Below, piece by piece: positions 8,521 to 32,000 of a DNA stretch of 32,000 nucleotides. The translations under genes and the position numbers were made by a program. The notes under the pieces were generated by a model. It worked only from the letters and a program-made list of their open reading frames with translations, did no database searches and was not told the DNA's origin. The DNA lies in the NCBI GenBank assembly GCA_003194425.1, contig PQXB01000001.1:850444-882443 (forward strand), read 5' to 3'. The DNA comes from Candidatus Methanophagaceae archaeon. GTDB lineage: Archaea; Halobacteriota; Syntropharchaeia; Alkanophagales; Methanospirareceae. The first letter of the stretch is position 1. Each line of letters opens with the position of its first letter.

Positions 8521-8556
8521 GAGAGCTGAGGTTACAGAGCTGAGAGAGCTGAGGTG
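8497..8556. repeat. Tandem duplication (about 22-23 bp x2, CAGAGCTGAGAGAGCTGAGGT, plus a partial third copy) spanning the cdhC stop and the rad50-like start
   Basis: Read directly: TGCAGAGCTGGT TGCAGAGCTGAGAGAGCTGAGGT TACAGAGCTGAGAGAGCTGAGGT GG. Confidence 0.8.
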
Positions 8557-11337
8557 GAAATGATTCTGAAGACGCTGGCGCTGCGGAATTACCGAAAATA
8601 TAAGGACGCGAATTTGGAGTTCCCGGACGGCGTTCTCGGAATTGTGGGGCTGAACGGCGTAGGGAAAACAACGCTCGTAGAGGCGGTCGGCTGGGCTTTG
8701 TTCGGTCACCACGCGGCTCGGACGACGAAAGAGCTCATAAAACGCGAAGGGGCGTCGCCGCACGAGGTTTGCAGTGTCGCTTTAGAATTCGAGTTAGAGG
8801 GCGACAGCTACAAGGTGGTGCGGAAAATGGCGGGCAGGAATTTAGTGCCAAAAGCGAGCCTCGTCGTGAACGGGCGACTCGAAACAAACAACCCTGACAC
8901 GGTCACGAAAGTCGTAGAAGAGCGAATGGGAATGGACTACAAATCTTTCTTCACCTCGGTCTTCGCAAGGCAGAAGGAGTTGAACGCACTCTCCTCGATG
9001 AAGGCGGCGGAACGGAAACGGCTCGTGCTTCGAATGCTCGGCATTGAACAGGTGGAGAAGGGAGTGCAAGCGGTGAGAGAGGACAGACGCGGGAGAGAAA
9101 AGAAGGTAGAGGGGCTGAAGGCGGCAACCGTTGACAGAGAGGGTAGAGTGAAAGCAAAGGTGCTCGTGGGTGAGCGAGAGGAGTTGGAGAAGGCGAAAGA
9201 GAGGCTCTTACCGCTTCTAAAAAAGACCGAAGCCGCTGGAGTAGCGAAGGAGAGGGAGTTGGCGGAGGCGAAGCAGGAGTTGGAGGCTGCCACGAGGAAG
9301 TACGAAAAATTTGTGGCGTTGAGCAGTGAGTTGACTGAGCGGAGGAGCGTGTTAGAGAACACTAGGGAGCGGAGGGGAGAGAAAGAGCGAGAATTGGAGG
9401 GGTTGGCGGAGAAGAGGAGGCGGCTTGAAGGGCTTGAGGGGAAGGAGGAGGAATATTTTAGGTTGGGTGCGCGGAAGGAGAGGCTGGACGCGGTGCGAGA
9501 AGAGTACCGGCGGAAGCAGGAACTGCTGAAGAGCGAGCGGAAGACAAGGCAGGAAATAACGAGGCGGAAGGGAAAAATAAGCGGGCTGAAGGAGAGTGTG
9601 GCGGGGTTTGAGGGCGTCGAGGAGGCTTTTGCGTCGCAGGTTCGGCTGCGCGGAGAACTGGAGGCGGCGAGGGAGAAATACCAGCGAAAGAGGGAGTTAG
9701 AGAGGCGAGAAGAGCGGACACGACAGGAGGTAAAGGAAAGAGTAGAGAGGACGAAGCGGTTAGAAGAGGCGTGGCAGGGGTTTGTGGCTCTTGAAGTTGA
9801 AGAGCGGGTGGAGGAAGTGAAGCGTGAGGTCGAAGGGCTAAAGAGGGAGCGGGAGCGTGTTCTTTCTTCGCTCGGCGCTCTTAAATCCGCGGTGGCACAG
9901 AACGAGCGGGAGATTGAAGAGGCGAGAGAGAAGTGGCAGAAGGTCGCAGAGTTGGGTCCAGAGGGCGAGTGTCCGCTCTGCGAGCGGGAGTTGGGGCCGC
10001 ACTACGAGGTGCTGAAAAAGAAGTTGTGTGCAGAGTTAAAAACGAAAACAGAGCGTTCAGATTTGCTCTCTGAAGAGCGCAGGCAGAGAGAGGCGGAACT
10101 TGCTTCAAAGGAACGAGAGGAGACTTTGCTTGAAAAGAAGGTCAGGGAGTTGGAACGCGGCGTAGCCAAGAAGCGAGAGTTAGCGTTAAAAAAAGAGAAA
10201 GAGGCAGCGGAGTTAAGAGTGTGGAGGGAGGAGTTAGAGCGGTTAGAAACGGATTTGAAGCCTCTTGCAGGCGTGGAATTTAACGAGGGCGACTACAAAG
10301 AAGTTGTTTTGAAGTTGGGCGAGTTTGAAGACCGAGTTAGGCAGAAGAAGGATTTAGAGCAGACGGTAAGGTACGAAGAGGGTGAGTTGGAGCGGTGGAA
10401 GAAAGAATTAGAGCAGTTAAAAAGAGATTTAACGCTGCTTAGAGAGGTAGAATTTGACGAGCGTGAGTACAAGGGTGTTGTTTCTGGTTTGAAGAATCTT
10501 GAGCAGGTGTACGAGGAAATAATCGGGTTGCGGGCGGAGGTCGGAAGAATTGGCGAGGTGAGCGGCAGTCTGGGGCGGTTAAGCAAGTTGGAAGGGTGTG
10601 TTGCGGAGAGCGTGGCAGCGTTGGAGCGGCAAGTGGCGGAACTGGGGTTTGAGAAGACCGCGTACGAGGAGTTGAAGGCAAGGCACGAGCGGAGGCGGGA
10701 GGAATTGAGCGAGTTGGAGAAGGAGCATTTGAGGAAGAAGAACGAGTTCGAGAATGTGTGCAGGGAGGAGGAGCGAGTGTTGGACAAAATAGAGGAGCAG
10801 AGGTGGTTGCTGGCGGAGAAAGAGAAGGAGGAGACCGAGATAATGTATTTCCGCCTGTTGGAGCGGTTAATGAGCGATTTCAAGGTGCATTTGGTTGGCA
10901 GGATTCGCCCGATGCTCTCTGATTACGCGTCTGAGATGCTTGGAAAGATGACGGACGGAAAATACAGCAAGTTGGAGTTGGACGAGAACTACGATGTTTT
11001 TATTTACGACGAGGGCACACCTTACGAGTTGAGCAGGTTCTCGGGCGGCGAGGAGGACTTGGCGAACCTCTGCCTGCGGCTTGCGATTTCCGCAGTCGTC
11101 GCAGAGAGGAGTGCGATTCAGACAAATTTTATTATTCTCGACGAGATTTTCGGGTCGCAGGACGCTCTTCGGAAACGGAATATTATTACGGCGTTGAACG
11201 AGCTCTCGAAGAAGTTTCGGCAGATATTTCTGATTACGCACATCGAGGAGGTGAAGGATTTTATGGAACACGTGCTGCAGGTGACGGAGGACGAGGCGGG
11301 GGTGAGCTGGGTGGGCGCGGGAAGGGGAGGGGTGTAG
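8554..11337 (+). CDS. rad50: Rad50/SbcC-like SMC-family ATPase with central CxxC zinc hook
   Basis: Walker A is GLNGVGKTT. The Q-loop-like segment is VFARQKEL. The middle is about 600 aa of heptad-rich E/K/R/L coiled coil, with GECPLCERELGPHY (C-P-L-C at 9970-9981) at its centre. The signature is FSGGEEDLANLCLRLAIS, Walker B is FIILDEIFGSQD, and the H-loop is LITHIEE. The probable true start is ATG 8560 (MILKTLALRNYRKY). Confidence 0.8.
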   Translation: MEMILKTLALRNYRKYKDANLEFPDGVLGIVGLNGVGKTTLVEAVGWALFGHHAARTTKELIKREGASPHEVCSVALEFELEGDSYKVVRKMAGRNLVPKASLVVNGRLETNNPDTVTKVVEERMGMDYKSFFTSVFARQKELNALSSMKAAERKRLVLRMLGIEQVEKGVQAVREDRRGREKKVEGLKAATVDREGRVKAKVLVGEREELEKAKERLLPLLKKTEAAGVAKERELAEAKQELEAATRKYEKFVALSSELTERRSVLENTRERRGEKERELEGLAEKRRRLEGLEGKEEEYFRLGARKERLDAVREEYRRKQELLKSERKTRQEITRRKGKISGLKESVAGFEGVEEAFASQVRLRGELEAAREKYQRKRELERREERTRQEVKERVERTKRLEEAWQGFVALEVEERVEEVKREVEGLKRERERVLSSLGALKSAVAQNEREIEEAREKWQKVAELGPEGECPLCERELGPHYEVLKKKLCAELKTKTERSDLLSEERRQREAELASKEREETLLEKKVRELERGVAKKRELALKKEKEAAELRVWREELERLETDLKPLAGVEFNEGDYKEVVLKLGEFEDRVRQKKDLEQTVRYEEGELERWKKELEQLKRDLTLLREVEFDEREYKGVVSGLKNLEQVYEEIIGLRAEVGRIGEVSGSLGRLSKLEGCVAESVAALERQVAELGFEKTAYEELKARHERRREELSELEKEHLRKKNEFENVCREEERVLDKIEEQRWLLAEKEKEETEIMYFRLLERLMSDFKVHLVGRIRPMLSDYASEMLGKMTDGKYSKLELDENYDVFIYDEGTPYELSRFSGGEEDLANLCLRLAISAVVAERSAIQTNFIILDEIFGSQDALRKRNIITALNELSKKFRQIFLITHIEEVKDFMEHVLQVTEDEAGVSWVGAGRGGV

Positions 11338-11438
11338 AGTAAAGTTCGTGAGTTCAAGAGGAGTTACAAGATATAACTTATGTAATCTGATTATAAATAC
11401 TTTTCATTTTGAATAAGAGGCGTATTTCAATTAGTGGA

Positions 11439-12054
11439 TCATTGTTGATCTTGATCACTTTTATTTTTCGTCCATAAAACCACTCTTAACCTTTCATAAA
11501 TTTTCCCAAAAATACAATTTAAAGGAAAATAAGGGTCTATTTTATAATCCAAGCCAAATTTTTCTATGAACTCTTTCCACTCTTTTTTGGTGAAATAACT
11601 TATTCCATTATCCTCTAAAATCAATTTTGATAGGAATCGTTTACCATACCAACTCTCTTTGTTTAGGACTGTAATGTCATCTATTAAAACATTCTTACGT
11701 GCTACCCGCATCATCTCTTTTACCGCTTGATACGGGTCAACGATGTGATGCAGAACCCCATTTGCCGCAACATGATCAAATGAGTTATTTTTGAATGGAA
11801 GAGACCCCGCCACACAGATTACATTATGTTCTGGAGACCTACCCTTTTGAATCGAGTATTTTAGCATAGAAACATTGTACGACATTTCCGGTGCCAGAAC
11901 CGATGTCTAAAAATGTTTCGTTTGATTTTATGTTACCAAGTGCAATCATAACTAAACATTTACGGAAAAATGAGACGATTCGATTATCGGTTAAGATGAA
12001 CTTTTCGTATTCTTCGGGATTCTCATATTATTTATTTTTTATTATTTCTGTCAT
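11439..12054 (-). pseudogene. Class I SAM-dependent methyltransferase, disrupted (in-frame TAA after codon 8 plus a 1-nt frameshift near 11842-11849)
   Basis: Hand translation of the minus strand gives ATG (12054) TEIIKNK-TAA-YENPEEYEKFILTDNRIVSFFRKCLVMIALGNIKSNETFLDIGSGTGNVVQCFYAKILDSKG-stop. The tracked ORF (11439..11885) continues in the next frame as RSPEHNVICVAGSLPFKNNSFDHV...RVARKNVLIDD. Removing one base from the AAAAGGG run restores one frame. The span is 616 nt, not a multiple of 3. Confidence 0.55.
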
Positions 12055-12057
12055 TAA

Positions 12058-12426
12058 TTATCCCTTTATGTAAAATCCAATTATGCACACACCAATCGTT
12101 ATTAAAATTACCCCCACCCACGCACCTCTGCTAAATGGTTCTCCCAACAAAGCATTGCTCATTAAAACAACCAAAGGATAACTTAAACTTAAAAAAGGAT
12201 ACGCATAGCTCACTCGAACGTTTGAAAGAACATACAGCCACAAAATAAAACTTATTACATATAACACTACACCAGCTAAAAAATACACATTCCCGATAAG
12301 TGATTGAATTGTTGCGATGCTGATTAATGGCATATTTTTAGGAATCTCACTCACCCCAAACTTTAATAAAACTTGACCTACTGCAACGATGAATACGCAC
12401 AATAATATACAGATTAAATTTTTCAT
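12058..12426 (-). CDS. Small four-helix EamA/SMR-like membrane protein (ArnE/ArnF-like putative lipid-linked sugar flippase subunit)
   Basis: 122 aa with four hydrophobic helices. The pattern GQVLLKFG...LYVLSNVRVSYAYPFLSLSYPLVVLMSNALLGEPFS...GVILITIGV is typical of single EamA-domain proteins found next to GT-C transferases. The function is an inference. Confidence 0.6.
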   Translation of the reverse strand: MKNLICILLCVFIVAVGQVLLKFGVSEIPKNMPLISIATIQSLIGNVYFLAGVVLYVISFILWLYVLSNVRVSYAYPFLSLSYPLVVLMSNALLGEPFSRGAWVGVILITIGVCIIGFYIKG

Positions 12427-12446
12427 TTTTTAGCTTAGCCTCTCCT

Positions 12447-13037
12447 TTAGCCACTCTTTTTACACACCACAACATAATGAGCATATAAAAGATTTGGAAT
12501 ATTTTTTACAAATTCAGTCACAAAACCGTTCTCTTCTAACAATTTTGTCATCTCTTCTTTTGGAACATAATACATCTCCAAAGATCGTGTCATAATAAAG
12601 TCATGCACATAATTCCAAAGATATTTGTAGAGGGGTTTGTCGTTCATATCCTTCACAATTAGACGCCCGTTCTCTTTTAAGAGTTCGTTTATTTTCTTAA
12701 ATATTGCAAGATGGTCTTTTTTAGGAATGTGATGTATTAAATCCAAGCAGGTTATTACATCGTATCTCTTGTTGGCGGAAAAACATGTAATATCCGCACA
12801 AGCGAAATTCAAATTTGAGTTAGCTGCAACCCTGTTATTTGCGGCATTAACTCTCTTTTTGTCCTTTTCTATTCCTGTTATCTTCAGTTTCGGTCTTTCT
12901 TTTGATAAGATAAAGCAGAATGTTCCGTATCCACTGCCTATGTCAAGAAGTTCTCCTGCTTTTTTAGGAACATTTTCGATTATTTTCTCGAACGGACATA
13001 TTATCGAGCGGAGCCTGTCGTATAATTTTGGATGCAT
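12447..13037 (-). CDS. Class I SAM-dependent methyltransferase
   Basis: Motif I is LLDIGSGYGTF. An acidic post-I residue is present (ITGIEKD). Motifs DVITCLDLIHHI and ENGRLIVKD are also present. Confidence 0.8.
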   Translation of the reverse strand: MHPKLYDRLRSIICPFEKIIENVPKKAGELLDIGSGYGTFCFILSKERPKLKITGIEKDKKRVNAANNRVAANSNLNFACADITCFSANKRYDVITCLDLIHHIPKKDHLAIFKKINELLKENGRLIVKDMNDKPLYKYLWNYVHDFIMTRSLEMYYVPKEEMTKLLEENGFVTEFVKNIPNLLYAHYVVVCKKSG

Positions 13038-13038
13038 G

Positions 13039-14505
13039 TTAATCTCCTATAAAGTTTCCGATGAGAGTCATAATTTTACTCAACCAAAAATATGTTGAAT
13101 AGTACCAACTCGCAATTAAAACTACAGTCAATAAGAGAAATATTATTATCTTTCTTCTCGTCTTGGAATTTCCTAATCTGATTTCAGATCGAACTCTATT
13201 TATCGAACAAGCACCATAAGACGCAAAAATAATTAGGAAAGGCATAATTTGCAAATGATATCTAACTTCTGCGAGTATAAGTGAATGCATAAGTGTATAA
13301 TAAAATATCAATAAGATCAACAAATATGCTTTTCTATCCCATTTTTGATAAAACACGATTCCAAAGATGGCGAGGGGCAGCAATATAATATAGGGAAGAA
13401 CTGTTAATGGTGCTAATATTATAAATAACCATTTTGGGACAGGATTAATAAAACGATTTTCAAAATAATTAGCAAAAAACTTGTTTGGAATTCCCAAAAA
13501 ATAAGCAAATTTTTTAAGATCTAAACATAAAACAGAGATAGGTTTCTCTTTGATAAATTCAAAACCTTTTTTATAAAATAATCTGTCCCTCTCAACTTCG
13601 TTATGAGCCGTCATGTTTAGAGACTTATATGCCTTCGTTTTATTTTCCAAAGCACTACAAGCCATTCCCGTTGCATCGGGATTATTTCCAAGCCAAAAAC
13701 AATGTCCGCCATTTGTGCTCACGGGAACGAATTTATGATGCACATTATAATTCCTTACTGCCCACGGAGATACAACAACCATAATAATAACGAAAATCGC
13801 AATGAAATTCATCAAATTCTTCTTCATCTCTTTTGAGTCTTTTGAGGAGAGTTCTTTTGAAGAGAGTAAGAGCCAAAAAAGTATGAAAGGAATGAATCCC
13901 AGAATAATAGGTCTAACGAGCATTGCAAGACCTAAAGGTACACCAGCCATTAACAGATTTTTTAGCGATGCTTGCTCATAAACTTTTAATAAATATAAAA
14001 TTGATAAGCTAAGTAAAAATATAAATATTGTTTCGGTAAGTAGCAGACTAGAGAAGATGATAAAAGTAGGATAGACAGCAGCAATAAAGCCGGATATTAT
14101 GCCTATCTTTTTATTAAGGACTGTTTTTCCGAGGAAGTAGATCACGATGCAGGTAAGCGAACTGACAAACGCCTGGAATATGCAGGCTATTTGAGGGTTG
14201 TATCCAAAAAGAGAGTAAATAGCTGCGAGAAAGAACGGTTGCCCTGGTGGCCAATACGAGCTTGTACCGCCGCTATTTCCTCCGCCATATCCTTTTCCTT
14301 CTATGAGTCCAATGGCTAAGCTGTCGTAAGCGGTTGCATCGCCAATGACCACAGTAGGAAAAAGAATAACATAAAACAATCGGATAACCAAAGAGATTCC
14401 AAATATGAGAACTAGAACTTTCCACTCCTCTAATTCTCCTAAACGGTCTAAGAAATTTTTGATTTGTTCCCTTTTCACTACCCTTAGCCTTAGCCCAACA
14501 GACAT
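13039..14505 (-). CDS. GT-C superfamily glycosyltransferase (ArnT/PMT-like, GT39/GT83 type), polytopic membrane protein
   Basis: 488 aa with at least 10 predicted hydrophobic helices. The N-terminal loop has DATAYDSLAIGLIEGKGY...YWPPGQPFFLAAIYSLFG, characteristic of ArnT/dolichyl-phosphate-mannose transferase-like enzymes. Confidence 0.75.
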   Translation of the reverse strand: MSVGLRLRVVKREQIKNFLDRLGELEEWKVLVLIFGISLVIRLFYVILFPTVVIGDATAYDSLAIGLIEGKGYGGGNSGGTSSYWPPGQPFFLAAIYSLFGYNPQIACIFQAFVSSLTCIVIYFLGKTVLNKKIGIISGFIAAVYPTFIIFSSLLLTETIFIFLLSLSILYLLKVYEQASLKNLLMAGVPLGLAMLVRPIILGFIPFILFWLLLSSKELSSKDSKEMKKNLMNFIAIFVIIMVVVSPWAVRNYNVHHKFVPVSTNGGHCFWLGNNPDATGMACSALENKTKAYKSLNMTAHNEVERDRLFYKKGFEFIKEKPISVLCLDLKKFAYFLGIPNKFFANYFENRFINPVPKWLFIILAPLTVLPYIILLPLAIFGIVFYQKWDRKAYLLILLIFYYTLMHSLILAEVRYHLQIMPFLIIFASYGACSINRVRSEIRLGNSKTRRKIIIFLLLTVVLIASWYYSTYFWLSKIMTLIGNFIGD

Positions 14506-14507
14506 CC

Positions 14508-15417
14508 TTAATCCCCTCCTCCTGCACCCACAACCCCTACCCTAACCGCCGCCTCAGGAACAGCATAAAGAATCGCCACAACCAAAACCGCCCACGAGAC
14601 CAAGCACAAAACCATCCCTTTGTCCTTAAAAATCATCTCGGTCTCGCCACCGAAGTTCTCTGCGTGAACCAGAAATAAATACCTGAAAAGCCCGTAAATC
14701 GGAAACGGAATCGTGAGCATCAGGTAAATGTCGTCTGCGAGGAAAGTGTAGAGCGAGTAAGAAATTATCAGAGCAGCCGAAGAAATGCCGATCATTTGGT
14801 CGAGCATTTCAGTCGAATACGCTTCAAGAGTCCTGCGATGCCGCCTCGCTTCCTCCTCGCCGAGCAAGACCAGCTCGTGCCTCCGCTTACAGAGAGCCAA
14901 GAACAAGGCGAGCAGGAACGCACAAACAATTAGCCAAGGAGAGGCGAAGAGATTAATTGCCAGGCACCCCGCGATTGCACGAATGACAAAGCCGACCGAG
15001 ATGACCAAAAGATCAACGATGACGAAATATTTAAGAAACAGCGAATAGAGCAGGATTAAAAAGAGGTAGCAAACAGATATTACAAAAAACGATTTATTTA
15101 TTAAATACGACCCCCCCCCCCGCAAAAATAATCATAAGAAGAGCGAAGAACAACGCGTGCGACTTCTTCAACTTCCCAGAGGCAATTGGTCGCTTGCTCT
15201 TCGTCGGATGTTTCCTGTCCTGCTCGAAGTCTAAGATGTCGTTGAGGATGTATTCGCTTCCGGAGAGGAGGGAGAAGAGAGCGAAGGCGGCGAGAACATT
15301 GAGCCACATCTGGAAGTTCAGCAGGTTTACAGAGAAGACGATTCCGACGAATAAGATCAGGTTCTTGTACCACTGCTTCGGTCGCATCGCGGTTACGAGC
15401 TCTTTTAGCATTTTCAT
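14508..15417 (-). pseudogene. UbiA-family prenyltransferase resembling decaprenyl-phosphate phosphoribosyltransferase (DPPR synthase), split by a frameshift in a G11 homopolymer
   Basis: The N-terminal ORF has MRPKQWYKNLILF...NDILDFEQDRKHPTKSKRPIASGKL, the DPPR-synthase-type first Asp-rich motif. The C-terminal ORF (14508..15125) continues the family's transmembrane pattern. The two frames meet at C11 on the plus strand (15111-15121). With 10 G the reading ...IIFAGGGSYLINKSFF... is continuous, giving about 303 aa. Confidence 0.75.
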
Positions 15418-15436
15418 TACATCTATCCTTCTTCTT

Positions 15437-15589
15437 TTATTTATGTTCCACATCTACATTTATCTGCTCACTGACCTTCCCTTGAAGCTTCCTGTCAGCA
15501 GTAATCAACTTGTAATTCCCTTTTACTTTTGAAGTTATATTAACATAAATTGCGTCATAAAATGTTCTTCCAAATTTTCCCGTTTTATT
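15437..15589 (-). pseudogene. C-terminal remnant of a PIN-domain (VapC-like) toxin gene
   Basis: Hand translation gives NKTGKFGRTFYDAIYVNITSKVKGNYKLITADRKLQGKVSEQINVDVEHK-stop. The ...YDAIYV...LITADRKL pattern is the last conserved block of PIN domains. There is no start codon, and an upstream stop lies at 15590-15592. Confidence 0.4.
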
Positions 15590-22688: not shown

Positions 22689-23000
22689 CTACCCCTTCAG
22701 CACAATTTCGATGTGAACGTCCTTTGGAATCGGAATGCGCATAAGTTGTCGCAACGCCCGCTCGTCCGCTTCTAAGTCAATCAGCCGCTTGTGAATGCGC
22801 ATTTCCCAGTGGTCCCAAGTAGGCGAGCCCTCGCCGTCTGGACTCTTCCTGCACGGTACCACCAACTTCTTTGTAGGAAGAGGGACAGGACCCAACATTC
22901 TAACGCCCGTCGTCTCTGCGATTTTCTTCACCTGCTGGCAGATGCCGTCCATTTTCTTGTGGTTCGTGCTTGACAGTTTTATCCGCGCTTTTTGATCCAT
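22689..23000 (-). CDS. rps10: 30S ribosomal protein S10 (uS10)
   Basis: [42 protein letters not shown]...RIHKRLIDL is the canonical S10 sequence. It sits downstream of EF-1alpha, as in many archaea. Confidence 0.95.
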
Positions 23001-23056: not shown

Positions 23057-24322
23057 TTACTTCTCCTTTACATCAATTACCATCCCCGCGGCGACGGTCT
23101 GCCCCATATCGCGGACCGCGAACCTGCCTAACTGCGGAATCTCCTTCACACGCTCGATGACAAGCGGTCGTGTCGGCTTTATTTTGATGATCGCAGCGTC
23201 GCCTGTCTTTATGATGTCTGGGTTCTCCTCTACCACCTGTCCCGTCTTCGGGTCCAACTTCTTTGAAATCTCGATTACCGTAGCAGCGACCTGAGCGGTG
23301 TGGCAGTGGAAGACGGGCGTGTAGCCGATTGTAATCGCGCTGGGGTGCTGAAGGACAACAATTTGCGCGGTGAACTCGTCGGCAACCGTAGGCGGCGTGT
23401 CAGTGTGCCCGCAAACGTCTCCTCGCCGAATCTCAGTCCTGCTTATCCCGCGGACGTTCCAGCCGATGTTGTCTCCCGGAATTGCCTCTTCAATCTCCTC
23501 GTGGTGCATTTCAATCGTCTTCACCTCGCCGACCTTGCCGGGGGGGTTAAAAATGACTTTGTCCCCTTTCTTTATCTTCCCGGTCTCAACGCGACCCACA
23601 GGGACAGTCCCAACGCCTGTAATCGTGTAGACGTCCTGCACGGGAACTCGGAGCGGTAGATTAATCGGCTTCTGCGGGACTTTCATCATATCCATCGCAG
23701 CCAAGAGCGTTGGTCCGTCAAACCATTTCATTTTTTCGCTCTTCTTAACTATGTTCTCTCCCTCGTACGCAGAGACAGGCACGAAGATCACCGAGTCCTT
23801 CTTGTAGCCGACCATCGCCAAGAGCGCCAGAATCTCCTCCTTCAACTCCTCGTACCGCTTCTGATCGTAGTTTATGCGGTCCATCTTGTTCACCGCGACG
23901 ATCAACTGAGTTACGCCCAAAGTCCTGGACAGAAAGACGTGCTCCTTCGTCTGCGCCATTATTCCGTCCTTTGCGTCGACGACCAAGACCGCTGCGTCCG
24001 CCTGCGAAGTCCCTGTAATCATATTTTTCACGAAGTCCCTGTGACCGGGGCAGTCCACGATTGTGTAGTAATATTTGTCTGTGTCGAACCGCTGGTGAGC
24101 GACATCGATTGTAATGCCCCGCTCTCGCTCGTCCTTCAGCGAATCCATCACCCACGCGAACTCGAATGTCGCCTTACCCAACGCCTCCGCCTTCTTCCTG
24201 TACTCGTCGATCAGATGCGGGTCGATTGTTCCTGTCTCTGTCAGCAGTCGTCCTAACAGCGTTGACTTGCCGTGGTCAATGTGCCCAATCATTGCCAGAT
24301 TCATATGCTCTTTCTCTACCAT
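23057..24322 (-). CDS. tuf: Translation elongation factor 1-alpha (aEF-1A)
   Basis: [17 protein letters not shown] and NKMD GTPase motifs are present. The full-length archaeal EF-1alpha pattern continues to the C-terminal [13 protein letters not shown]. Confidence 0.97.
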
Positions 24323-25540: not shown

Positions 25541-26482
25541 TTATTTGTCCCTAAATCCAACCTCCACGCTCATCAACTCCCTCGCAGCCTCGGTGTTCTT
25601 AAAGACCGCCCTCGCCTCTTCCTCCAGTTTGCTCGCACTGCCCAAATCCGAGTACCGAGCGCTGAGGTGCGTTAGGATGAGTTTTCGCACGCCTGCTTTC
25701 TTCGCCACCTCCGCAGCCTCTAAAGCGGTGGAATGCATATATTCTGCCGCGAACTCCTTCGTCTCCTCTGACATCGTGCTGTCGTGAATTAGCAGGTCGG
25801 CGTCCTTGCTCGCTTCTACAACGCTCTCGCAGGGTCTTGTGTCGCCGGTGTAGACGATTTTCCTGCCCGGTCTCGGCGGTCCCAGAACCTGCTCAGGTCG
25901 CACTTCTCTCTCTTCTCGCCCGCCCACCGCCACCGAGACAGAACGCCCGGATTGGAGTTTAGAGAAGAGGGGGCCGGGTTTGACGCCGAGTTCGATCGCG
26001 CGCTCGCGGTTGAACCGCCCAGGTCGCTTGTCTTCTTCCAAAACGTAGCCGAGGCTAACGACATTGTGCAGCGTTCTTACCGCTCGTATTTCGTAGCCCG
26101 CCCTTCTCACGACATCGCCGGGTCGCAGTTCCACCGCCCGCACCTCAAACTTCCTGCTCGCTCCCGCGTAGCCCAGCGAGACGAGGTGGTAGAGGAATTC
26201 CTGCACGTGCTTTGGACCGTAAATCTCGAGCGGCTCCGTCCGACCCTGCAGCCCCATCGTCTGGAGCAGACCTGGAATTCCGAGCACGTGGTCGGCGTGG
26301 AAGTGCGTGACGAAAATCGAATTCAGCCCCATTCCGGTCTTCGCCCGCATCATTTGCCGCTGCGTCCCCTCGCCACAGTCGAAGAGCATCAGCTCGCCCT
26401 CTCGGTTCACCGCCAACGCAGACGGATTCCTGTTCGGCGTCGGCGTCGAACCGCCTGTCCCCAAGAATGTTACTCGCAGCAT
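25541..26482 (-). CDS. rnz: Ribonuclease Z (tRNA 3' endonuclease)
   Basis: MLRVTFLGTGGSTPTPNRN...LFDCGEGTQRQM...IFVTHFHADHVLGIPGLL...ILTHLSARY is the metallo-beta-lactamase HxHxDH and RNase Z pattern. Confidence 0.9.
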   Translation of the reverse strand: MLRVTFLGTGGSTPTPNRNPSALAVNREGELMLFDCGEGTQRQMMRAKTGMGLNSIFVTHFHADHVLGIPGLLQTMGLQGRTEPLEIYGPKHVQEFLYHLVSLGYAGASRKFEVRAVELRPGDVVRRAGYEIRAVRTLHNVVSLGYVLEEDKRPGRFNRERAIELGVKPGPLFSKLQSGRSVSVAVGGREEREVRPEQVLGPPRPGRKIVYTGDTRPCESVVEASKDADLLIHDSTMSEETKEFAAEYMHSTALEAAEVAKKAGVRKLILTHLSARYSDLGSASKLEEEARAVFKNTEAARELMSVEVGFRDK

Positions 26483-26588: not shown

Positions 26589-27797
26589 GTGTTAAGGGAA
26601 AATGTGGTCTACTGCGGGGATTGCAAGAGTGTGCTTGCAGGGTTTCCGGAGAAGTCGGTGGATTTGATTTACGCCGACCCGCCGTTCTTCTCGAACAGGC
26701 ATTACGAGGTCGTCTGGGGCGACGGCTACGAGCTGCGGGCTTTTGAAGACCGCTGGAAGGGCGGGATTGAAAATTACACTGCCTGGATGGAAGACAGGAT
26801 TAGAGAGTGCCACCGGGTTCTGAAGGAGACGGGCTCGTTTTACTTGCACTGCGACTTCCACGCGAACGCGCATTTACGAATCTCGCTCGACCGGGTCTTT
26901 GGGAAGGGAAATTTTAGGAACGAGATAATTTGGTGCTACACTGGACCGTCGAACACAAAGAGATATTTTCCGCGAAAGACAGACACAATCTTTTTTTATG
27001 TCAAAAACAGAGACGCAAATTACTTTTTTGATGTGGAAAAAATTCGTGTTCCCTACAAAAAATTAGAGACAGGAAAAACGAGCGGTATTTTTAAAGGAGA
27101 AGCGACGCTTTCGGAGAAAGGCAAAATTCCAGAGAATTGGTGGGAAGAGAAACGAGACGGAATGTCACCAGTCGGGCGGTTAAAAAGAGAACGGCTTGGC
27201 TACCCGACGCAGAAGCCTGAAGCCCTCCTTGAACGCATCATAAAAGCGTCTTCAAACGAAGGCGATTTGGTCTTAGATCCGTTCTGCGGCTGCGGGACTT
27301 CGATCGCAGTGGCACACAGGCTCGGTCGCCGCTGGGTCGGAATTGATGTCTCGCCGACTGCGTGCAAAGTTATGGTCAGGCGAATGCGAAGAAGTCTTGG
27401 CGTGAGCGTCGGCGAGAGCGAAATAATCGGGCTTCCGAGAACTGTGGAAGAGTTAAAAACGATGAAGCCGTTTGAGTTTCAGAATTGGGTCTGCGAGCAG
27501 TTGAACGGGCAGGTCTCTTCCAAGAAGAGCGGAGACTTCGGGATTGACGGCTGGCTGATCGACGGCAGACCGCTGCAGGTCAAGCAGTCCGAGAATGTTG
27601 GAAGAAATGTGGTTGACAATTTCGAGACGGCGTTGAGACGGGCGGGGCGGAACCGGGGCGTCGTTGTTGCTTTTAGCTTCGGTAAAGGTGCAAACGAAGA
27701 GACGGCAAGGGCTCGACTACAGGACGGGCTGGAGATTGAACTTAAGACCGTAGAGGAGATTTTAAGAGGAGAAAATTACTCGCCTGAGGTTGCGTAG
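26589..27797 (+). CDS. DNA methyltransferase (beta-class N6-adenine/N4-cytosine type, motif IV before motif I) fused to a C-terminal PD-(D/E)xK Mrr-cat-like domain
   Basis: VDLIYADPPFFSN (motif IV, DPPF) precedes VLDPFCGCGTSIAVA (motif I). The last about 110 aa, FEFQNWVCEQL...SGDFGIDGWLIDGRPLQVKQSENVG...GVVVAFSF, fits the restriction-endonuclease (Mrr_cat) core D...(Q/E)xK. GTG start. Confidence 0.75.
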   Translation: MLRENVVYCGDCKSVLAGFPEKSVDLIYADPPFFSNRHYEVVWGDGYELRAFEDRWKGGIENYTAWMEDRIRECHRVLKETGSFYLHCDFHANAHLRISLDRVFGKGNFRNEIIWCYTGPSNTKRYFPRKTDTIFFYVKNRDANYFFDVEKIRVPYKKLETGKTSGIFKGEATLSEKGKIPENWWEEKRDGMSPVGRLKRERLGYPTQKPEALLERIIKASSNEGDLVLDPFCGCGTSIAVAHRLGRRWVGIDVSPTACKVMVRRMRRSLGVSVGESEIIGLPRTVEELKTMKPFEFQNWVCEQLNGQVSSKKSGDFGIDGWLIDGRPLQVKQSENVGRNVVDNFETALRRAGRNRGVVVAFSFGKGANEETARARLQDGLEIELKTVEEILRGENYSPEVA

Positions 27798-28069
27798 ATT
27801 TCGTAGGGCATTATTTTTTTATTCACCTTCTTCTTCCCTTTCAACCTGCTTACGAGGTCGGCGGCTTTCTTCTTCTGCTCCCGCTTCTTCAACCGTTCCA
27901 TTATGCTCGCCATTTCCTTCTCTTTACCCTTCTCCGCCTCAGCACTGCCGCCGTTTTCTCCCTCCGCTTTCTCGCTTGCGTAGCCTCCTTCTGTCTCTTC
28001 TACTTCTTCTTCAACCCCTCCCTCTTCCGCCTCGTCCATTCCTTCAAAAACCATTATTTCTACACCCAT
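27776..28069 (-). CDS. Small charged low-complexity protein ending in ...Ser-Gly-Glu; candidate Pup-like modifier
   Basis: 97 aa. The N-terminal half is acidic and G/E/A-rich (DEAEEGGVEEEVEETEGG...), and the C-terminal half is basic and helical-looking (MERLKKREQKKKAADLVSRLKGKKKVNKK). The C-terminus is YEIYATSGE-stop, verified codon by codon. GGAGGT lies 9 nt upstream of the ATG. It is the last gene of the PafA/Dop-like operon. The function is inferred from context only. Confidence 0.55.
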   Translation of the reverse strand: MGVEIMVFEGMDEAEEGGVEEEVEETEGGYASEKAEGENGGSAEAEKGKEKEMASIMERLKKREQKKKAADLVSRLKGKKKVNKKIMPYEIYATSGE

Positions 28070-28146
28070 TTTAACTCAACCTCCTTTCTTGAAGTTTTTT
28101 GCTGCTGTTTTTTGATAAACCTTTTTCAAAAAAGGACTTAAGGTTC
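28070..28146 (-). promoter_or_regulatory. Intergenic control region: A/T hairpin with U6 tract, TATA-like TTTATCAAAAAA, and the SD GGAGGT of the small ORF
   Basis: The minus strand reads CCTTTTTTGAAAAAGG TTTATCAAAAAACAGCAGCAAAAAACTTCAAGAAAGGAGGTTGAGTTAAAATG. The palindrome is at 28120-28135 and the SD at 28079-28084. Promoter and terminator roles are inferred. Confidence 0.35.
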
Positions 28147-29841
28147 TTAATAAATCACCTTGTCAGGGTGCAACCGTTTCGCGGCTGACAACACCTCTTC
28201 TATTTGCCTCCCCTGCCCTTCTCCTTCTCCCTCTCCTCCTCCCTCTCCTTCTCCCCTGCACATCTCCGCACCAATTTCCGCCTTATTCAGCATAAACGGC
28301 TCGTCCAACGTTACTTTCGCCTCGTTAAGCACCAGCGTTGACCAACTCACACTCCGCACGTGCGACCCAAATCTTCGCAGTATTTCCACCCTGAAGAAGT
28401 CCCTCGTGTTCTCGGGTGCGTTGCTCAGCGCGTATTTCACCCGCTCCGAGAACGACGACCAACCGACCCCCGGCAATTCCCGCTCCGCAAACGCCAGCGA
28501 CTCCTTCTGACTGTAAAGACTCCCGCTACCCCCCCTCCCTCTCCCTCTCCCTCCTTCAGCCCCGAGGTCGAGGCAGTTCAGCACACTCGCGTCCAGCAGT
28601 GCGTACTGGTTGCAGACGCTAATTCCTTCGGACGCGGTCTTCGGCTCGTAATTCACGAGCAGCGCCAACTTCGTCACCCAGTCGAGACCGTCCACAAAAT
28701 CCTCCACTCGCCGAGCCTCCAGCTTCTCTAACGCCTCCTCAAACGCCTTCTTTCCCTCCCCTTCCCACTTCCCTCCCTCCCAACTCCCCTTTTCCTGCAT
28801 TTCCTCAATTTTCTCGAGGTAAAACCGCAGAACCGCGACCGCGTCCGTCCGCTCACCGCCCTTCAACCTCACCCGCCACTCGCACTCCTGCGTGTCCGCG
28901 GAAATCTCCTTAAAACTCCTCACAGGGTCTTCCAACACAGGTGCGTCGTCCAAGAACCCTGCTTCAAACGCGGAAATTACCAACGCCTGCAAAATGTCGC
29001 GCAAAAAAATCGCGTACTCAGAACGGAGAGCCTCAAAATGAATGTCGTGCAGTCGCCAGTACTTGTTGCGTGCTGCGTGAGGCTGGTCTCGTGTGTTCAG
29101 AATGCCTCTACCAGCAGTGGTTGAGAGCGACGACTTGCGAGTAACGAACATCGCTCTCGGCGAAATAACGAACTTCACCCCGCCCCGCTTCCCCCCAACC
29201 GCCCCAACGAAGTCACCAGAGACGACGTCTCCCGAGCCAGTGAGTAGAATTCTCGTGACGACCCACGGAATTAACGCCCGCTCTACACGACTCCAGTCCT
29301 TGCACGCTGCCCGTTTTGTTAGAAAATTTCCGTGCGTGGCGTAAGTGAGGGTCTTTACTCTTCCCGCTTTGCCACTGCCACTGAGTCTGGCTGTGCTGGT
29401 GGCACTGCCTCCGCCACCGGCACTACCACCGCCGCTGCGGTTCACGACCGTGTTCGCGACATTGTTTTTGTGAACTGCTACTCGCTTCTTCAACGCCAGA
29501 CCCGCCTCCCGCGAGCCTACAAAAGCGTAAATCTCAGAGGCTTTGTCGTACGCCACAGCGTCAAAGGGGCTGTTGTAAGAGGGCGTTGAAATCTCAAGAT
29601 GCCCCAAATCGTTGTAAATCCGGCACCCGTTCTCGCCGAACCACGAGGAAATTTTCGACTCGTGCGTCTCTTGTGAAATTTCGGTAGCGGTGTCCCACTT
29701 CACAACCCGCGAAAATCTTCGCCGTCTTAAACCCTGAATCGCAGCGCTGACGAGCAGAGAAGGATTTAAACCCGCTCTCGCACTCACAGGGTACTCCTGC
29801 TCTACTCCTCTTATTTTGTTTTCTGTCCCCTCCATAAGCAC
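28147..29841 (-). CDS. Pup ligase/deamidase family protein (PafA/Dop-like carboxylate-amine ligase fold), paralog B (Dop-like C-terminus)
   Basis: Ordered motifs: GVEQEY, ENGCRIYNDLGHLEISTPSY, ATHGNFL, LIPWVVTRILLTGSG, KFVISPRA, GILNTRDQPHA, WRLHDIHFEALRSE, DPVRSFKEISAD, LDWVTK, and NTRDFFRVEILRRFGSHVRSVSWSTLVL (compare Dop ...TRAYFRGECLRRFG......SW, from memory). An alternative start is ATG 29835. Confidence 0.8.
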   Translation of the reverse strand: MLMEGTENKIRGVEQEYPVSARAGLNPSLLVSAAIQGLRRRRFSRVVKWDTATEISQETHESKISSWFGENGCRIYNDLGHLEISTPSYNSPFDAVAYDKASEIYAFVGSREAGLALKKRVAVHKNNVANTVVNRSGGGSAGGGGSATSTARLSGSGKAGRVKTLTYATHGNFLTKRAACKDWSRVERALIPWVVTRILLTGSGDVVSGDFVGAVGGKRGGVKFVISPRAMFVTRKSSLSTTAGRGILNTRDQPHAARNKYWRLHDIHFEALRSEYAIFLRDILQALVISAFEAGFLDDAPVLEDPVRSFKEISADTQECEWRVRLKGGERTDAVAVLRFYLEKIEEMQEKGSWEGGKWEGEGKKAFEEALEKLEARRVEDFVDGLDWVTKLALLVNYEPKTASEGISVCNQYALLDASVLNCLDLGAEGGRGRGRGGSGSLYSQKESLAFAERELPGVGWSSFSERVKYALSNAPENTRDFFRVEILRRFGSHVRSVSWSTLVLNEAKVTLDEPFMLNKAEIGAEMCRGEGEGGGEGEGEGQGRQIEEVLSAAKRLHPDKVIY

Positions 29842-29856
29842 TTCCTCTCTCCTTCA

Positions 29857-31770
29857 TTATTCTCCCTCTTCTCTCTCTTCTCCTTCTCTCTCTTCTCCCT
29901 CCTCCCTCCCCTTTTTCTCCGCCTTTTTTATCTCTTCAACCTTCCTTTTTATCACCTCCTCGTCCCACCCGTCCAGCTCGTCAAACTTGTAAGTCTTGTT
30001 GTTAGAACACATCAAGTACTCCAAATACGGATTCCTTGCGATTCTGCTCCTTATTTCCTGGCTTATTTCCTCCTCCCACCCCCTAATGTCCTCCTCTTCA
30101 CCCAGAAGTCGCACAAGAACCTCCCTCCTTCTTCCCCCCCGCCCGTCCCTGCTTCTCGACTCGTGCAGAAAGACCACCACCGCACTCGGTCGCCTCCCGA
30201 GTTCAGGGTACTGCTCAAACAACCGCATATATTCCTCCGCACTCGGCGGCCCCATATCTATTTTTATCTTCGGCGCCCGATTTATCGTTATCTTGTTCCA
30301 ACTCAACGCCGCGTCCTCGAACCCCGGCACCGCCGCCAGCCGCACCCGCAATTCCGCTCTCGAACCCTTCGGCGGAGACAACAAAGCCTCCCCTAACTCC
30401 TCTTCAGTCAGTAGCCGCACCACGCCCACTCGGTCCGCTACTTGCTCGTACAAGTCGTGTTCGCCGAGATTGGTAAACTCGAACGAAGCCGCTATTTCCT
30501 TCTCCGCCTGCTCGTCCATTTTATAAAGGCTTCGGTAGTCGAACCGCCCCTTTGGTCTCTCTTCGTACTCAAAATCCGCGAGTTCATTTTTTAACACCCA
30601 CCACTTCAGCACCCACTCCAAACGCCGCACCACAAACGGGTCCTCAAGCAGCCCCTGACCAAACTTGTCGCAAAGCCTCTTAAAAGTGTCCAGCACATAT
30701 TTGTCCCAGTAGGAAGTCTCCCTCTCTGCGAACAACTCCTCAATCGCCGCGAGGTAGTGAGAATTGAGGTAGTCGATCGCTGACTCGGTCCGCCTGTTCA
30801 TCAATTTTATCCGCCACCCGCCTTCCCCGTTCGTGTTCGCCGAGATCTCCTTGAAAGTCTGAAGAGGGTTCCAAATCTCCTCGATGTGTGTAATTTTTCC
30901 GCACTCGATCGCGTCAATTACGTACGAAGTGAGTGCGTTGTTGAGCAGTCGTGTTACTTCAGACCGAACACCCTCACCAGAAGTAACATGCACACGATAA
31001 AAATCCTTCGTACTCAAGGGCTCGTCCCGCGTCGACAAAATCGGCCACTGCGACGGCGACTCTGTGAGAACGCGCTTCGAAACCATCGCTTTCGGCGAAA
31101 TTACATATTTTAAACCTCCTCTCACTCCTCTTTCTCCTCTCCCTGCCCCCCTCTCTCCACCTGCCTTCTCCGCCACGAACCCGCCAGCGCCAAAGAAAAT
31201 CTTACGAAGCACCAAGAACGGCACGAGCAGACCCTCTTTGCCCACGAATTTCTTCCGCTTCACAATGTAGGACTCGTGCGTGCCTCTACTGTACCGCTTG
31301 TCAATCTCGACATTCGCCTTCCAGCACTGAATGCTTACGTGTGTTGCGTGTGCGGAGCCTCCTCGTCCCCCTTTCCCTCGTCCCTGTCCCTGCTTCCCCA
31401 GCCTCTTTCTGAGCCTCTCGTTCGCTTCCTCAACGCCGATTTGCATAAACAACTCCGCCGCCTTGTCGTACTTCAGCACCTCAAACGCGTCCCTGCACTC
31501 CGGCGTCGCGATTTCAAGGTGACCTCCAGTGCAGATGTAAATCCGCGAGCCGTTCCGCAAGAACCCATCGTTCCGCCGCCGCAGCTTCGAGCAGACCGCT
31601 GCCGTGCCGTCAAAAAAAGAGTAATTCTCAAGCGCACGAATCACTTCGTCCACGTGGTAAAATCTGGCGTACCTGTACAACCCCGGCGATTCCGAACTTA
31701 TTCCGACCCTGAATTCGTGCTCCAACCCCTGCCACCTGCTCAAATCCCCTTCCATCTTTTTTCCTCCCAT
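29857..31770 (-). CDS. Pup ligase/deamidase family protein (PafA/Dop-like), paralog A
   Basis: Ordered motifs: GLEHEF, FLRNGSRIYICTGGHLEIATPEC (compare PafA [23 protein letters not shown]), GTHESYI, LVPFLVLRKIFFGAGG, KYVISPKA, PILSTRDEPL, YRVHVTSGEGVRSE, NPLQTFKEISAN, and LEWVLK. ATG 31755 has the better-spaced SD (GGAGGAAAAAAGATG). The protein has G/R-rich inserts and an E/R/G-rich tail. Confidence 0.8.
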   Translation of the reverse strand: MGGKKMEGDLSRWQGLEHEFRVGISSESPGLYRYARFYHVDEVIRALENYSFFDGTAAVCSKLRRRNDGFLRNGSRIYICTGGHLEIATPECRDAFEVLKYDKAAELFMQIGVEEANERLRKRLGKQGQGRGKGGRGGSAHATHVSIQCWKANVEIDKRYSRGTHESYIVKRKKFVGKEGLLVPFLVLRKIFFGAGGFVAEKAGGERGAGRGERGVRGGLKYVISPKAMVSKRVLTESPSQWPILSTRDEPLSTKDFYRVHVTSGEGVRSEVTRLLNNALTSYVIDAIECGKITHIEEIWNPLQTFKEISANTNGEGGWRIKLMNRRTESAIDYLNSHYLAAIEELFAERETSYWDKYVLDTFKRLCDKFGQGLLEDPFVVRRLEWVLKWWVLKNELADFEYEERPKGRFDYRSLYKMDEQAEKEIAASFEFTNLGEHDLYEQVADRVGVVRLLTEEELGEALLSPPKGSRAELRVRLAAVPGFEDAALSWNKITINRAPKIKIDMGPPSAEEYMRLFEQYPELGRRPSAVVVFLHESRSRDGRGGRRREVLVRLLGEEEDIRGWEEEISQEIRSRIARNPYLEYLMCSNNKTYKFDELDGWDEEVIKRKVEEIKKAEKKGREEGEEREGEEREEGE

Positions 31771-31836
31771 TTTTCTTTTACTAAAGCTTTTCCTCCTAAG
31801 AAAAAGTGTTAAGAAAAAAAACTTTAAGAAAAGCTT

Positions 31837-32000
31837 TTAATAATGCATTCCCGTCTCCTCGTCAGGCATCTCGCCGTAGCCCGACGCCAAAATCTCCTCC
31901 GCCCTTCGCTGCACGAACTTGTCAAAACCCTCTTTCAAATGCCGCATATTCACGCCAATCTCCTCCACGCGTTTGTACCGCCGCTCCAAATCCGCAGTCT
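31837..32000 (-). CDS. 3' end of an unidentified gene, truncated by the window edge, directly upstream of the PafA/Dop-like pair
   Basis: Hand translation gives ...TADLERRYKRVEEIGVNMRHLKEGFDKFVQRRAEEILASGYGEMPDEETGMHY-stop (TAA at 31837-31839). It is on the same strand, 66 nt upstream of paralog A. No family was recognised from 53 residues. Confidence 0.4.
   Translation of the reverse strand, partial: TADLERRYKRVEEIGVNMRHLKEGFDKFVQRRAEEILASGYGEMPDEETGMHY

Follow-up and report, generated by a model that had tools for sequence, protein, structure and literature searches.

Reviews treat pupylation as a bacterial invention (PMC2588565, PMC12288473), and the classic survey of Pup loci recorded them in bacterial lineages only (PMC2588565). 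Protein tagging in archaea has been ascribed instead to beta-grasp systems of the SAMP, Urm1 and ubiquitin-like kind, and a 2010 survey of these systems reported no PafA homologs (PMC2948915). Here we describe an operon at one end of a 32,000-nucleotide (nt) stretch of genomic DNA from a Candidatus Methanophagaceae archaeon (contig PQXB01000001.1, positions 850,444 to 882,443; hereafter the window). The 3' end of a gene for an AAA+ ATPase is followed by two paralogous genes of the Pup-ligase family, A and B, and by a small gene whose product ends in Gly-Glu. We read the AAA–A–B–small operon as a probable archaeal pupylation-like conjugation system that would act through the terminal Glu of the small protein, accompanied in Methanophagales (ANME-1) by an unfoldase, and we assign this reading a probability of roughly 0.68. 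The original prediction for this DNA had proposed a candidate system of this kind, and the proposal draws support from the PF03136 membership and fold of both enzymes, the conserved small protein with its G-[EQ] end and the linked AAA gene; conjugation itself is what we infer from these features. A full-text literature search turned up nothing published on PafA/Dop homologs in archaea or on their tag.

The locus shares several elements with the actinobacterial Pup–proteasome system (Pup, PafA, Dop, Mpa/ARC, PrcAB), namely two PF03136 paralogs with a glutamine-synthetase (GS)-like fold, an adjacent small protein that closes with G-[EQ], E and Q forms both being known, and a linked AAA+ ATPase, the N-terminus of which may have a coiled-coil plus OB architecture. 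It differs from that system in its archaeal host, in the separate clades formed by A and B, in an A that carries Cys at the position of the catalytic Asp, and in a locus without proteasome genes. No homology to Pup can be detected in the archaeal tag, and the half that would lie next to the ligase is basic, whereas that of Pup is acidic. The UBact and other Pup-like loci of Nitrospirae, Verrucomicrobia, Planctomycetes and further Gram-negative phyla are likewise sporadic, with one or two PafA-like genes beside a short disordered protein ending in G-[EQ] (PMC2588565). Those loci are bacterial, however, and the archaeal enzymes branch outside the radiation to which PafA and Dop belong. UBact ends in R-[TS]-G-[EQ], reminiscent of the T-S-G-E found here. 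With the SAMP/UbaA and Urm1-type systems the operon would have in common the covalent tagging of archaeal proteins and possible targeting to the proteasome. SAMP is nevertheless a beta-grasp protein with a C-terminal Gly-Gly that depends on E1-like adenylation, whereas the present operon combines a GS-fold ligase, predicted to work through a gamma-glutamyl phosphate, with a tag that is not of the beta-grasp type.

Profile searches and structural models place A and B in the Pup_ligase superfamily, with the glutamine-synthetase-like fold of Dop and PafA. The PF03136 profile, which has a gathering cutoff of 25 bits, matched A at 179.5 bits (E = 1.5e-52) and B at 221.1 bits (E = 3.6e-65), and nothing besides Pup_ligase in Pfam matched either protein; archaeal homologs in two further contigs (L051, L052) scored 169–218 bits. 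Compared with the PDB by sequence, B matched Dop (5lrt/4b0r) at 3e-36 and PafA at 3e-15, and A matched Dop and PafA alike, both at ~1e-17 to 1e-18. AlphaFold models of the two proteins were built from homolog alignments and compared with known structures using Foldseek, and both superposed on Dop and PafA. The model of B (predicted local distance difference test, pLDDT, 89.8; predicted template-modelling score, pTM, 0.92) matched Dop 7oxy with an E-value of 9e-28, with target-normalised template-modelling (TM) scores of 0.83–0.85 over the Dop entries and 0.68–0.73 for PafA. The model of A (pLDDT 77.2) matched Dop 7oxy (E = 6e-26) and the PafA–Pup structure 4bjr (E = 2e-25), with TM scores of 0.73–0.76 and 0.71 for Dop and PafA, respectively. 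The next-best folds for the models were the YbdK/GCL carboxylate-amine ligases, with far weaker scores. A carries in addition a C-terminal extension of ~130 residues. The original prediction had recognised the pair from a series of PafA and Dop motifs, every one of which is present, and from a Dop-like C-terminal block in B, which reads FFRVEILRRFGSHVRSVSW. Neither enzyme nor the small protein had a match in PADLOC, which returned generic AAA similarity alone for the ATPase; an anti-phage defence reading was rejected on this result.

Dop carries a conserved Dop-loop of 40–65 residues ahead of strand beta2 (PMC8599861). Strands beta1 and beta2 are spaced by ~54 residues in B and by ~70–75 in the Thermoproteota B-types; the intervening segment is structured in the model, and no Dop-loop motif was alignable. 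Judging from residue numbering, we take the same spacing to be ~38 in PafA and ~77 in Dop.

Membership of the family does not extend to orthology with either bacterial enzyme. Against the Dop equivalog model TIGR03688 (cutoff 492 bits) A scored 139.3 and B 189.8 bits, and against the PafA equivalog model TIGR03686 (cutoff 551 bits) the scores were 134.8 and 143.1 bits. An unrooted neighbour-joining tree of 82 sequences with 100 bootstraps separated the A-types (100%), the B-types (100%) and all other members including the PafA and Dop references (90%); it is a tree by this one method, with long branches and with partial PafA and Dop references rebuilt from HMMER alignments. On this sequence evidence, A and B are best described as ancient archaeal paralogs that are orthologs of neither PafA nor Dop. 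The assignment of A as PafA and of B as Dop was rejected on the cutoffs and the bootstrapped tree; the earlier view of the pair as PafA/Dop-family paralogs stands, on profile and fold. Function can accordingly be transferred at family level only. An exhaustive HMMER search collected 2163 family representatives at 50% identity; the 25 that reached an E-value of 1e-30 or better form an archaeal B-like clade, the named members of which belong to Bathyarchaeia and Methanomethylicia. Automatic database names for these enzymes include 'PafA2 family protein' and 'Pup--protein ligase'.

The catalytic residues of the family are well preserved in B. Roles have been assigned to Dop R90, Y92, D94, R227 and H241 (PMC8599861), D94 being the catalytic Asp that corresponds to PafA D64. 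In all seven lineages compared, the B-types retain the R-x-Y-x-D strand (Dop R90, Y92, D94), the H-x-E and K-x-N motifs, the His of the CHENY motif, the TR Arg, the RD[EQ]P motif (R227) and R-x-H (H241). Across 66 homologs, Y76, D78, E83, N127, H170, R197, R251, R263 and H265 of B are invariant. The Glu of the CHENY motif is replaced in the B-types (H-G/A/S). As a residue of a beta-strand it should face away from the site, with the neighbouring His and Asn facing in, and the change was therefore judged non-inactivating; a catalytic defect was set aside in favour of a clade-specific change. Residue conservation thus marks B as a probable active ligase, and possibly also a deamidase.

The active site of A is remodelled. 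Where PafA and Dop have their catalytic Asp, A has Cys80, a residue that does not vary among 34 aligned homologs or across 40 ANME-1 loci. Among other A-types this position holds Cys in locus L063 and in a subgroup of solo genes, Asp in L046, L055, L057 and L059, and His in L052. Since A is kept everywhere while its active site drifts, a role as partner, receptor or regulator is suggested. The solo A-type paralog of the P0232–P0240 group lies between GH57 glycoside hydrolase genes (L061, 8001–9488; L062, 5714–7201). It retains the Cys and has lost the RDEP phosphate-binding motif by deletion, a combination that makes it a probable pseudo-enzyme with a different role.

The third component is the small protein, which has two contrasting halves, an acidic and variable N-terminal half with a net charge of -15 and a basic, conserved C-terminal half with a net charge of +9, closing with the invariant tail IMPYEIYATSGE-COOH. 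Its last ~50 residues are 80–90% identical in 40 ANME-1 loci (EMASIMERLKKREKKEKAADLVSKLKGKKKxNKKIMPYEIYATSGE). The ANME-1 tail follows the pattern ...YAT[SA]G[EQ], with ATSGQ in one genome and ATAGE in one other. Differences at the three codon positions amount to 0.09/0.07/0.36, which points to purifying selection and marks the small ORF as a genuine protein-coding gene. A Shine–Dalgarno sequence, AAGGAGGT, stands ~8 nt ahead of its ATG. Both the strong ribosome-binding site and the Gly-Glu end that had been noted for this ORF were recovered. A profile search with a 10-member alignment retrieved 91 database clusters, unnamed or 'hypothetical' bar one evident misannotation, with GE at the C-terminus of 87 and GQ at that of 4.

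Homology of the small protein to Pup was rejected on the results of the profile comparisons given below, and we call it Pup-like by its features alone. Features described for Pup are a C-terminal G[EQ], a length of 50–90 residues and a position adjoining PafA genes (Iyer et al. 2008; PMC2588565). A terminal G-[EQ] is found in all 91 clusters, and same-strand adjacency to the enzyme pair in every lineage examined. Length is about 74–97 residues for the ANME-1 form, about 73–97 residues when L063 is included, and 30–47 residues in Thermoproteota, below the range of Pup. The acidic N-terminal extension was found only where an AAA gene is linked, in ANME-1 and L063.

An alternative role for such a short protein is that of a carrier or substrate, its Glu being joined to a small-molecule amine in the manner of LysW/LysX or the peptide maturing like a ribosomally synthesised and post-translationally modified peptide. 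The LysW/LysX amino-group carrier system is known in archaea, where LysW-type carriers end in Glu, and in it, too, the side chain of a C-terminal Glu on a small protein is joined to an amine at the expense of ATP. The Thermoproteota peptides of 30–47 residues, encoded amid metabolic genes, would suit such a role, and the wider fold family includes the small-molecule carboxylate-amine ligases YbdK and GCL. However, LysX is an ATP-grasp ligase of the RimK family, encoded within lysine/arginine biosynthesis operons, whereas the present enzymes belong specifically to PF03136, neither to GCS2 nor to ATP-grasp, and characterised PF03136 members act on Pup. No LysX or LysY/Z/J/K gene was found in the operon and none is conserved in the examined flanks, no lineage has conserved biosynthetic or tailoring genes beside the cassette, and an unfoldase is linked to it in two lineages. 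We consider the carrier role quite improbable.

The gene arrangement recurs widely. A locus scan using one genome per GTDB species gave 50 loci, of which 47 are ANME-1-type (53–72% identity to B) and three Methanomethylicota-type (31–33%). By tblastn, the order A–B–small ORF was recovered in 40 independent ANME-1 loci, far more than expected by chance, and a full AAA–A–B–small cassette is present in a second lineage, L063. Tandem A-type and B-type genes also occur in Methanomethylicia (L046–48), in Bathyarchaeia (L059/60) and in the groups L052/53, L055/56 and L057/58. Each pair outside ANME-1 abuts a short same-strand ORF ending in [AS]P[PS]G[EQ], with the peptide ends ...KEHAELIAPPGE, ...KEHTQVVAPSGE, ...VHKQVVSPPGE and ...EIHSEVVAPSGE; the peptide MGDGKEQGNPGKKRKKLKPEHAVVIAAPGQ sits upstream of A. 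In seven non-ANME-1 loci, between 1 and 4 of 170–630 stop-to-stop segments end in G[EQ], and in each case the one adjacent to the pair has the motif. The three-gene arrangement first noted in the window is therefore a recurrent one, and a conserved small ORF with a G-[EQ] end accompanies the enzymes nearly always, across two archaeal phyla.

Two further features of these loci were observed. In several ANME-1 genomes the operon is split by HicB/HicA-like and PIN-like toxin–antitoxin genes located between A and B (L013, 6937–7972; L025, 7109–7972; L038, 7244–7972; L009, 466–1849). In L063 the small gene is directly followed by a gene for an M42 (TET-type) aminopeptidase (7843–8892), a neighbour that hints at a link to peptide breakdown.

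The end of an AAA+ gene in the window was overlooked in the original prediction, together with the Cys of A and the non-orthology to PafA and Dop. The prediction had suggested a survey for linked AAA+ genes, and this one was found directly upstream of A. Its translation in the window ends in ...ERRYKRVEEIGVNMRHLKEGFDKFVQRRAEEILASGYGEMPDEETGMHY, followed by the stop codon, and matches the C-terminus of the AAA genes in L051 and L054. The full-length protein has 592 residues in L054, a near-identical contig, and 512–592 residues across related contigs. In every ANME-1 locus with enough flank an AAA gene directly precedes A, with 72–96% identity. The best-scoring NCBIfam families, all under their cutoffs, are PAN, CdvC, Mpa/ARC and Cdc48; scores were 172.5 bits for PAN NF003069 (cutoff 500), 159.9 bits for TIGR01242 and 149 bits for the Mpa/ARC model pup_AAA TIGR03689 (cutoff 505). 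The Walker motifs and the aromatic pore loop MWLG are intact. An N-terminal helix leads into RSPPLDCGFV, which resembles the PAN coiled-coil/OB junction RSPPLLVGVV. In its top family, its aromatic pore loop and this helix–Pro-Pro-Leu-x-x-Gly junction into a putative OB domain, the ATPase is like PAN, and it is nearer to PAN than to Mpa, of which it lacks the GQYL-type tail. Unlike PAN, it scores far under the family cutoff, ends in ANME-1 in G-M-H-[FY] rather than Hb-Y-X, and is an additional paralog specific to the operon that contains Gly/Arg inserts of low complexity. Its sequence thus identifies it as a divergent PAN/Mpa-like ATPase. Divergent to the AAA gene and upstream of it, in both of the ANME-1 contigs inspected, lies a gene for a MazE/PhoU-domain protein (L051, 5321–6355; L054, 6777–7844), which may be a conserved neighbour or a regulator. 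In L026 (1839–4422), AAA is truncated at about residue 295 and followed directly by B, without A; either a deletion or a misassembly would account for this arrangement.

By homology with PafA and Dop, B would recognise the small protein by its conserved C-terminal part, which is basic and prone to form helices, use ATP to phosphorylate the gamma-carboxylate of its terminal Glu, and then transfer the acyl group of the resulting gamma-glutamyl phosphate to a lysine amine. Variants ending in Gln would first be deamidated or phosphorolysed through the same chemistry, and their existence suggests that amide chemistry like that of Dop operates in the same systems. L057 combines a Gln-ended tag with an A from which the R227 equivalent has been lost, so there B may do both jobs. 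A, whose active site has diverged, would be an obligate partner, serving as deconjugase or regulator, as a Cys-dependent enzyme or as a non-catalytic receptor. In ANME-1, the PAN-like unfoldase would take hold of the tag by its acidic N-terminal extension and unfold tagged proteins, probably for the 20S proteasome. Delivery to the 20S particle is plausible, its basis being family resemblance and one ortholog with an HbYX motif. All of these steps go beyond the conservation of genes and residues, and we infer them from it.

A number of observations weigh against a pupylation-like system. Both enzymes lie far under the PafA and Dop equivalog cutoffs and outside both clades; A lacks the catalytic Asp, and several A-types outside ANME-1 have lost the equivalent of R227 or H241, the phosphate-binding Arg or His. 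The small protein matched nothing in Pfam or NCBIfam at E-values up to 0.1, the Pup models PF05639 and TIGR03687 included, although these libraries may lack a UBact model. An hhalign comparison of the 10-member alignment with M. tuberculosis Pup gave a probability of 0.1%. Four ANME-1 loci, one of them with only ~520 nt of flank, have no small ORF directly downstream of B. For the N-terminal 193 residues of AAA, the sole match in the PDB was the PAN N-domain 2wg5, at a non-significant E-value of 0.24. Finally, no proteasome genes were found in the window or in the examined flanks, the AAA C-terminus in 41 ANME-1 loci is G-M-H-[FY], once G-M-H-L, with no HbYX, and the Thermoproteota loci examined have no linked AAA.

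The last three of these points would also fit tagging of a non-degradative kind, in which the modification is a regulatory or protective mark and the ANME-1 ATPase remodels or extracts its targets without delivering them to a proteasome. Proteasomal ATPases are nonetheless the best family matches of AAA, and the L063 ortholog ends in F-Y-V, a canonical HbYX, the motif for docking to the proteasome. Moreover, 20S proteasomes are encoded by all archaea (PMC12288473). We regard non-degradative tagging as unlikely, and prefer conjugation with an unfoldase that would serve degradation in ANME-1.

A further explanation, that the operon is an artefact (contaminating bacterial DNA, a chimeric assembly or an actinobacterial Pup locus acquired very recently), gains some colour from related records that are labelled as bacterial or otherwise oddly, namely L016 ('Desulfobacteria') and L030 ('Nitrosotalea'), to which the Bathyarchaeia record L044 can be added. 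All three carry an ANME-1-type cassette at 63–72% identity; the AAA–A–B–small-ORF operon is complete in L016 and L030, and L044 is cut inside B. Given this identity and the synteny with ANME-1 loci, they are probably contigs of ANME-1 that were mis-binned into public metagenome-assembled genomes (MAGs). More than 40 independent archaeal assemblies have the same arrangement between archaeal genes of like composition, which excludes a chimera, and the archaeal clades of A and B, each at 100% bootstrap, lie outside bacterial PafA and Dop. Contamination and chimerism were rejected on these grounds, in keeping with what had been argued from the window alone, and an artefact of any of the three kinds is exceedingly improbable. 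A itself shares 99% identity with P0121, a protein encoded in a Methanophagales (ANME-1) MAG (contig JAOQIL010000012.1).

A more far-reaching proposal is that the operon represents an ancient, archaea-specific branch of Pup-type tagging that was not borrowed from bacteria, with an A/B duplication separate from that of bacterial PafA and Dop, given the three groups of the unrooted tree, a competent B, a remodelled A and a tag reduced to as few as 30 residues. We offer it tentatively, as a possibility whose odds are clearly below even. Were it true, the 30-residue tag would possibly be the smallest known protein modifier, the invariant Cys of A in ANME-1 would represent new chemistry for the fold, perhaps by way of a thioester intermediate or a thiol isopeptidase, and Pup-like tagging would have worked with the archaeal proteasome before, or independently of, Actinobacteria. 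A pupylation-like system of whatever age would give Archaea (ANME-1, Methanomethylicia, Bathyarchaeia) a second, chemically distinct tagging pathway. It would bear on substrate selection for the archaeal proteasome, a long-standing gap, on the origin of Pup-type tagging, and on the workings of pseudo-enzyme or Cys-substituted paralogs of GS-fold ligases. ANME-1 archaea are key to marine methane removal, and because thermophilic ANME-1 enrichments and cultured Methanomethylicia such as Methanosuratincola (PMC12244365) exist, the hypothesis is directly testable.

The features of the operon and of its surroundings are listed below.

Table 1. Coordinates of the operon and of other features within the 32,000-nt window
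Feature	Position	Strand	Remarks
AAA+ ATPase gene, 3' end	31837..32000	(-)	last 53 codons plus stop; cut by window end
Paralog A (637 aa)	29857..31770	(-)	A-type Pup-ligase-family, PF03136
Paralog B (564 aa)	28147..29841	(-)	B-type Pup-ligase-family, PF03136
A+T-rich spacer between B and small gene	28070..28146	(-)	reads ...caagaaAGGAGGTtgagttaaaATG; holds Shine–Dalgarno of small gene
Small protein gene (97 aa)	27776..28069	(-)	product ends ATSGE
DNA methyltransferase–endonuclease fusion gene	26589-27797	(+)	N6/N4 DNA methyltransferase fused to Mrr-like restriction endonuclease domain
RNase Z-like gene	25541..26482		
EF-1alpha gene	23057..24322		
S10 gene	22689..23000		
Split UbiA-family prenyltransferase gene	14508-15453	(-)	overlapping ORFs 14508-15125 and 15094-15453
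Low-G+C island	11400-15500		G+C 0.33-0.46, against ~0.53 elsewhere

The three minus-strand ORFs of the original prediction were reproduced in position, length and spacing. The AAA+ gene ends 66 nt upstream of A, B starts 15 nt past the stop of A, and the small ORF follows 77 nt past B, across a spacer that may contain a putative internal promoter. The fusion gene, on the opposite strand, runs towards the small ORF, and the two share 22 nt at their 3' ends.

The archaeal housekeeping neighbours named earlier (RNase Z-like, EF-1alpha, S10) were confirmed, alongside further archaeal genes for RNase P p30, Thg1, CdhC, a Rad50-like protein, RFC, PheRS-beta and an HdrD-like protein. Beyond the operon, the window holds archaeal housekeeping and C1 metabolism genes. 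G+C content is even across the operon, and a scan of the window found no tRNA. The low-G+C island encodes S-adenosylmethionine (SAM) methyltransferases, an EamA transporter and a PMT_2/STT3-like glycosyltransferase, and may be a horizontally acquired glycosylation island. The break in the UbiA-family gene is a frameshift, a pseudogene or a sequencing error. Gly/Arg/Glu-rich low-complexity inserts interrupt conserved domains in A (residues 129–142 and 204–217) and B (residues 137–156 and 429–437), and inserts of the same type occur in the L054 AAA protein (residues 133–158 and 424–450). In the models these inserts fall under a pLDDT of 50; most orthologs lack them, and they seem to be characteristic of the proteins of this genome.

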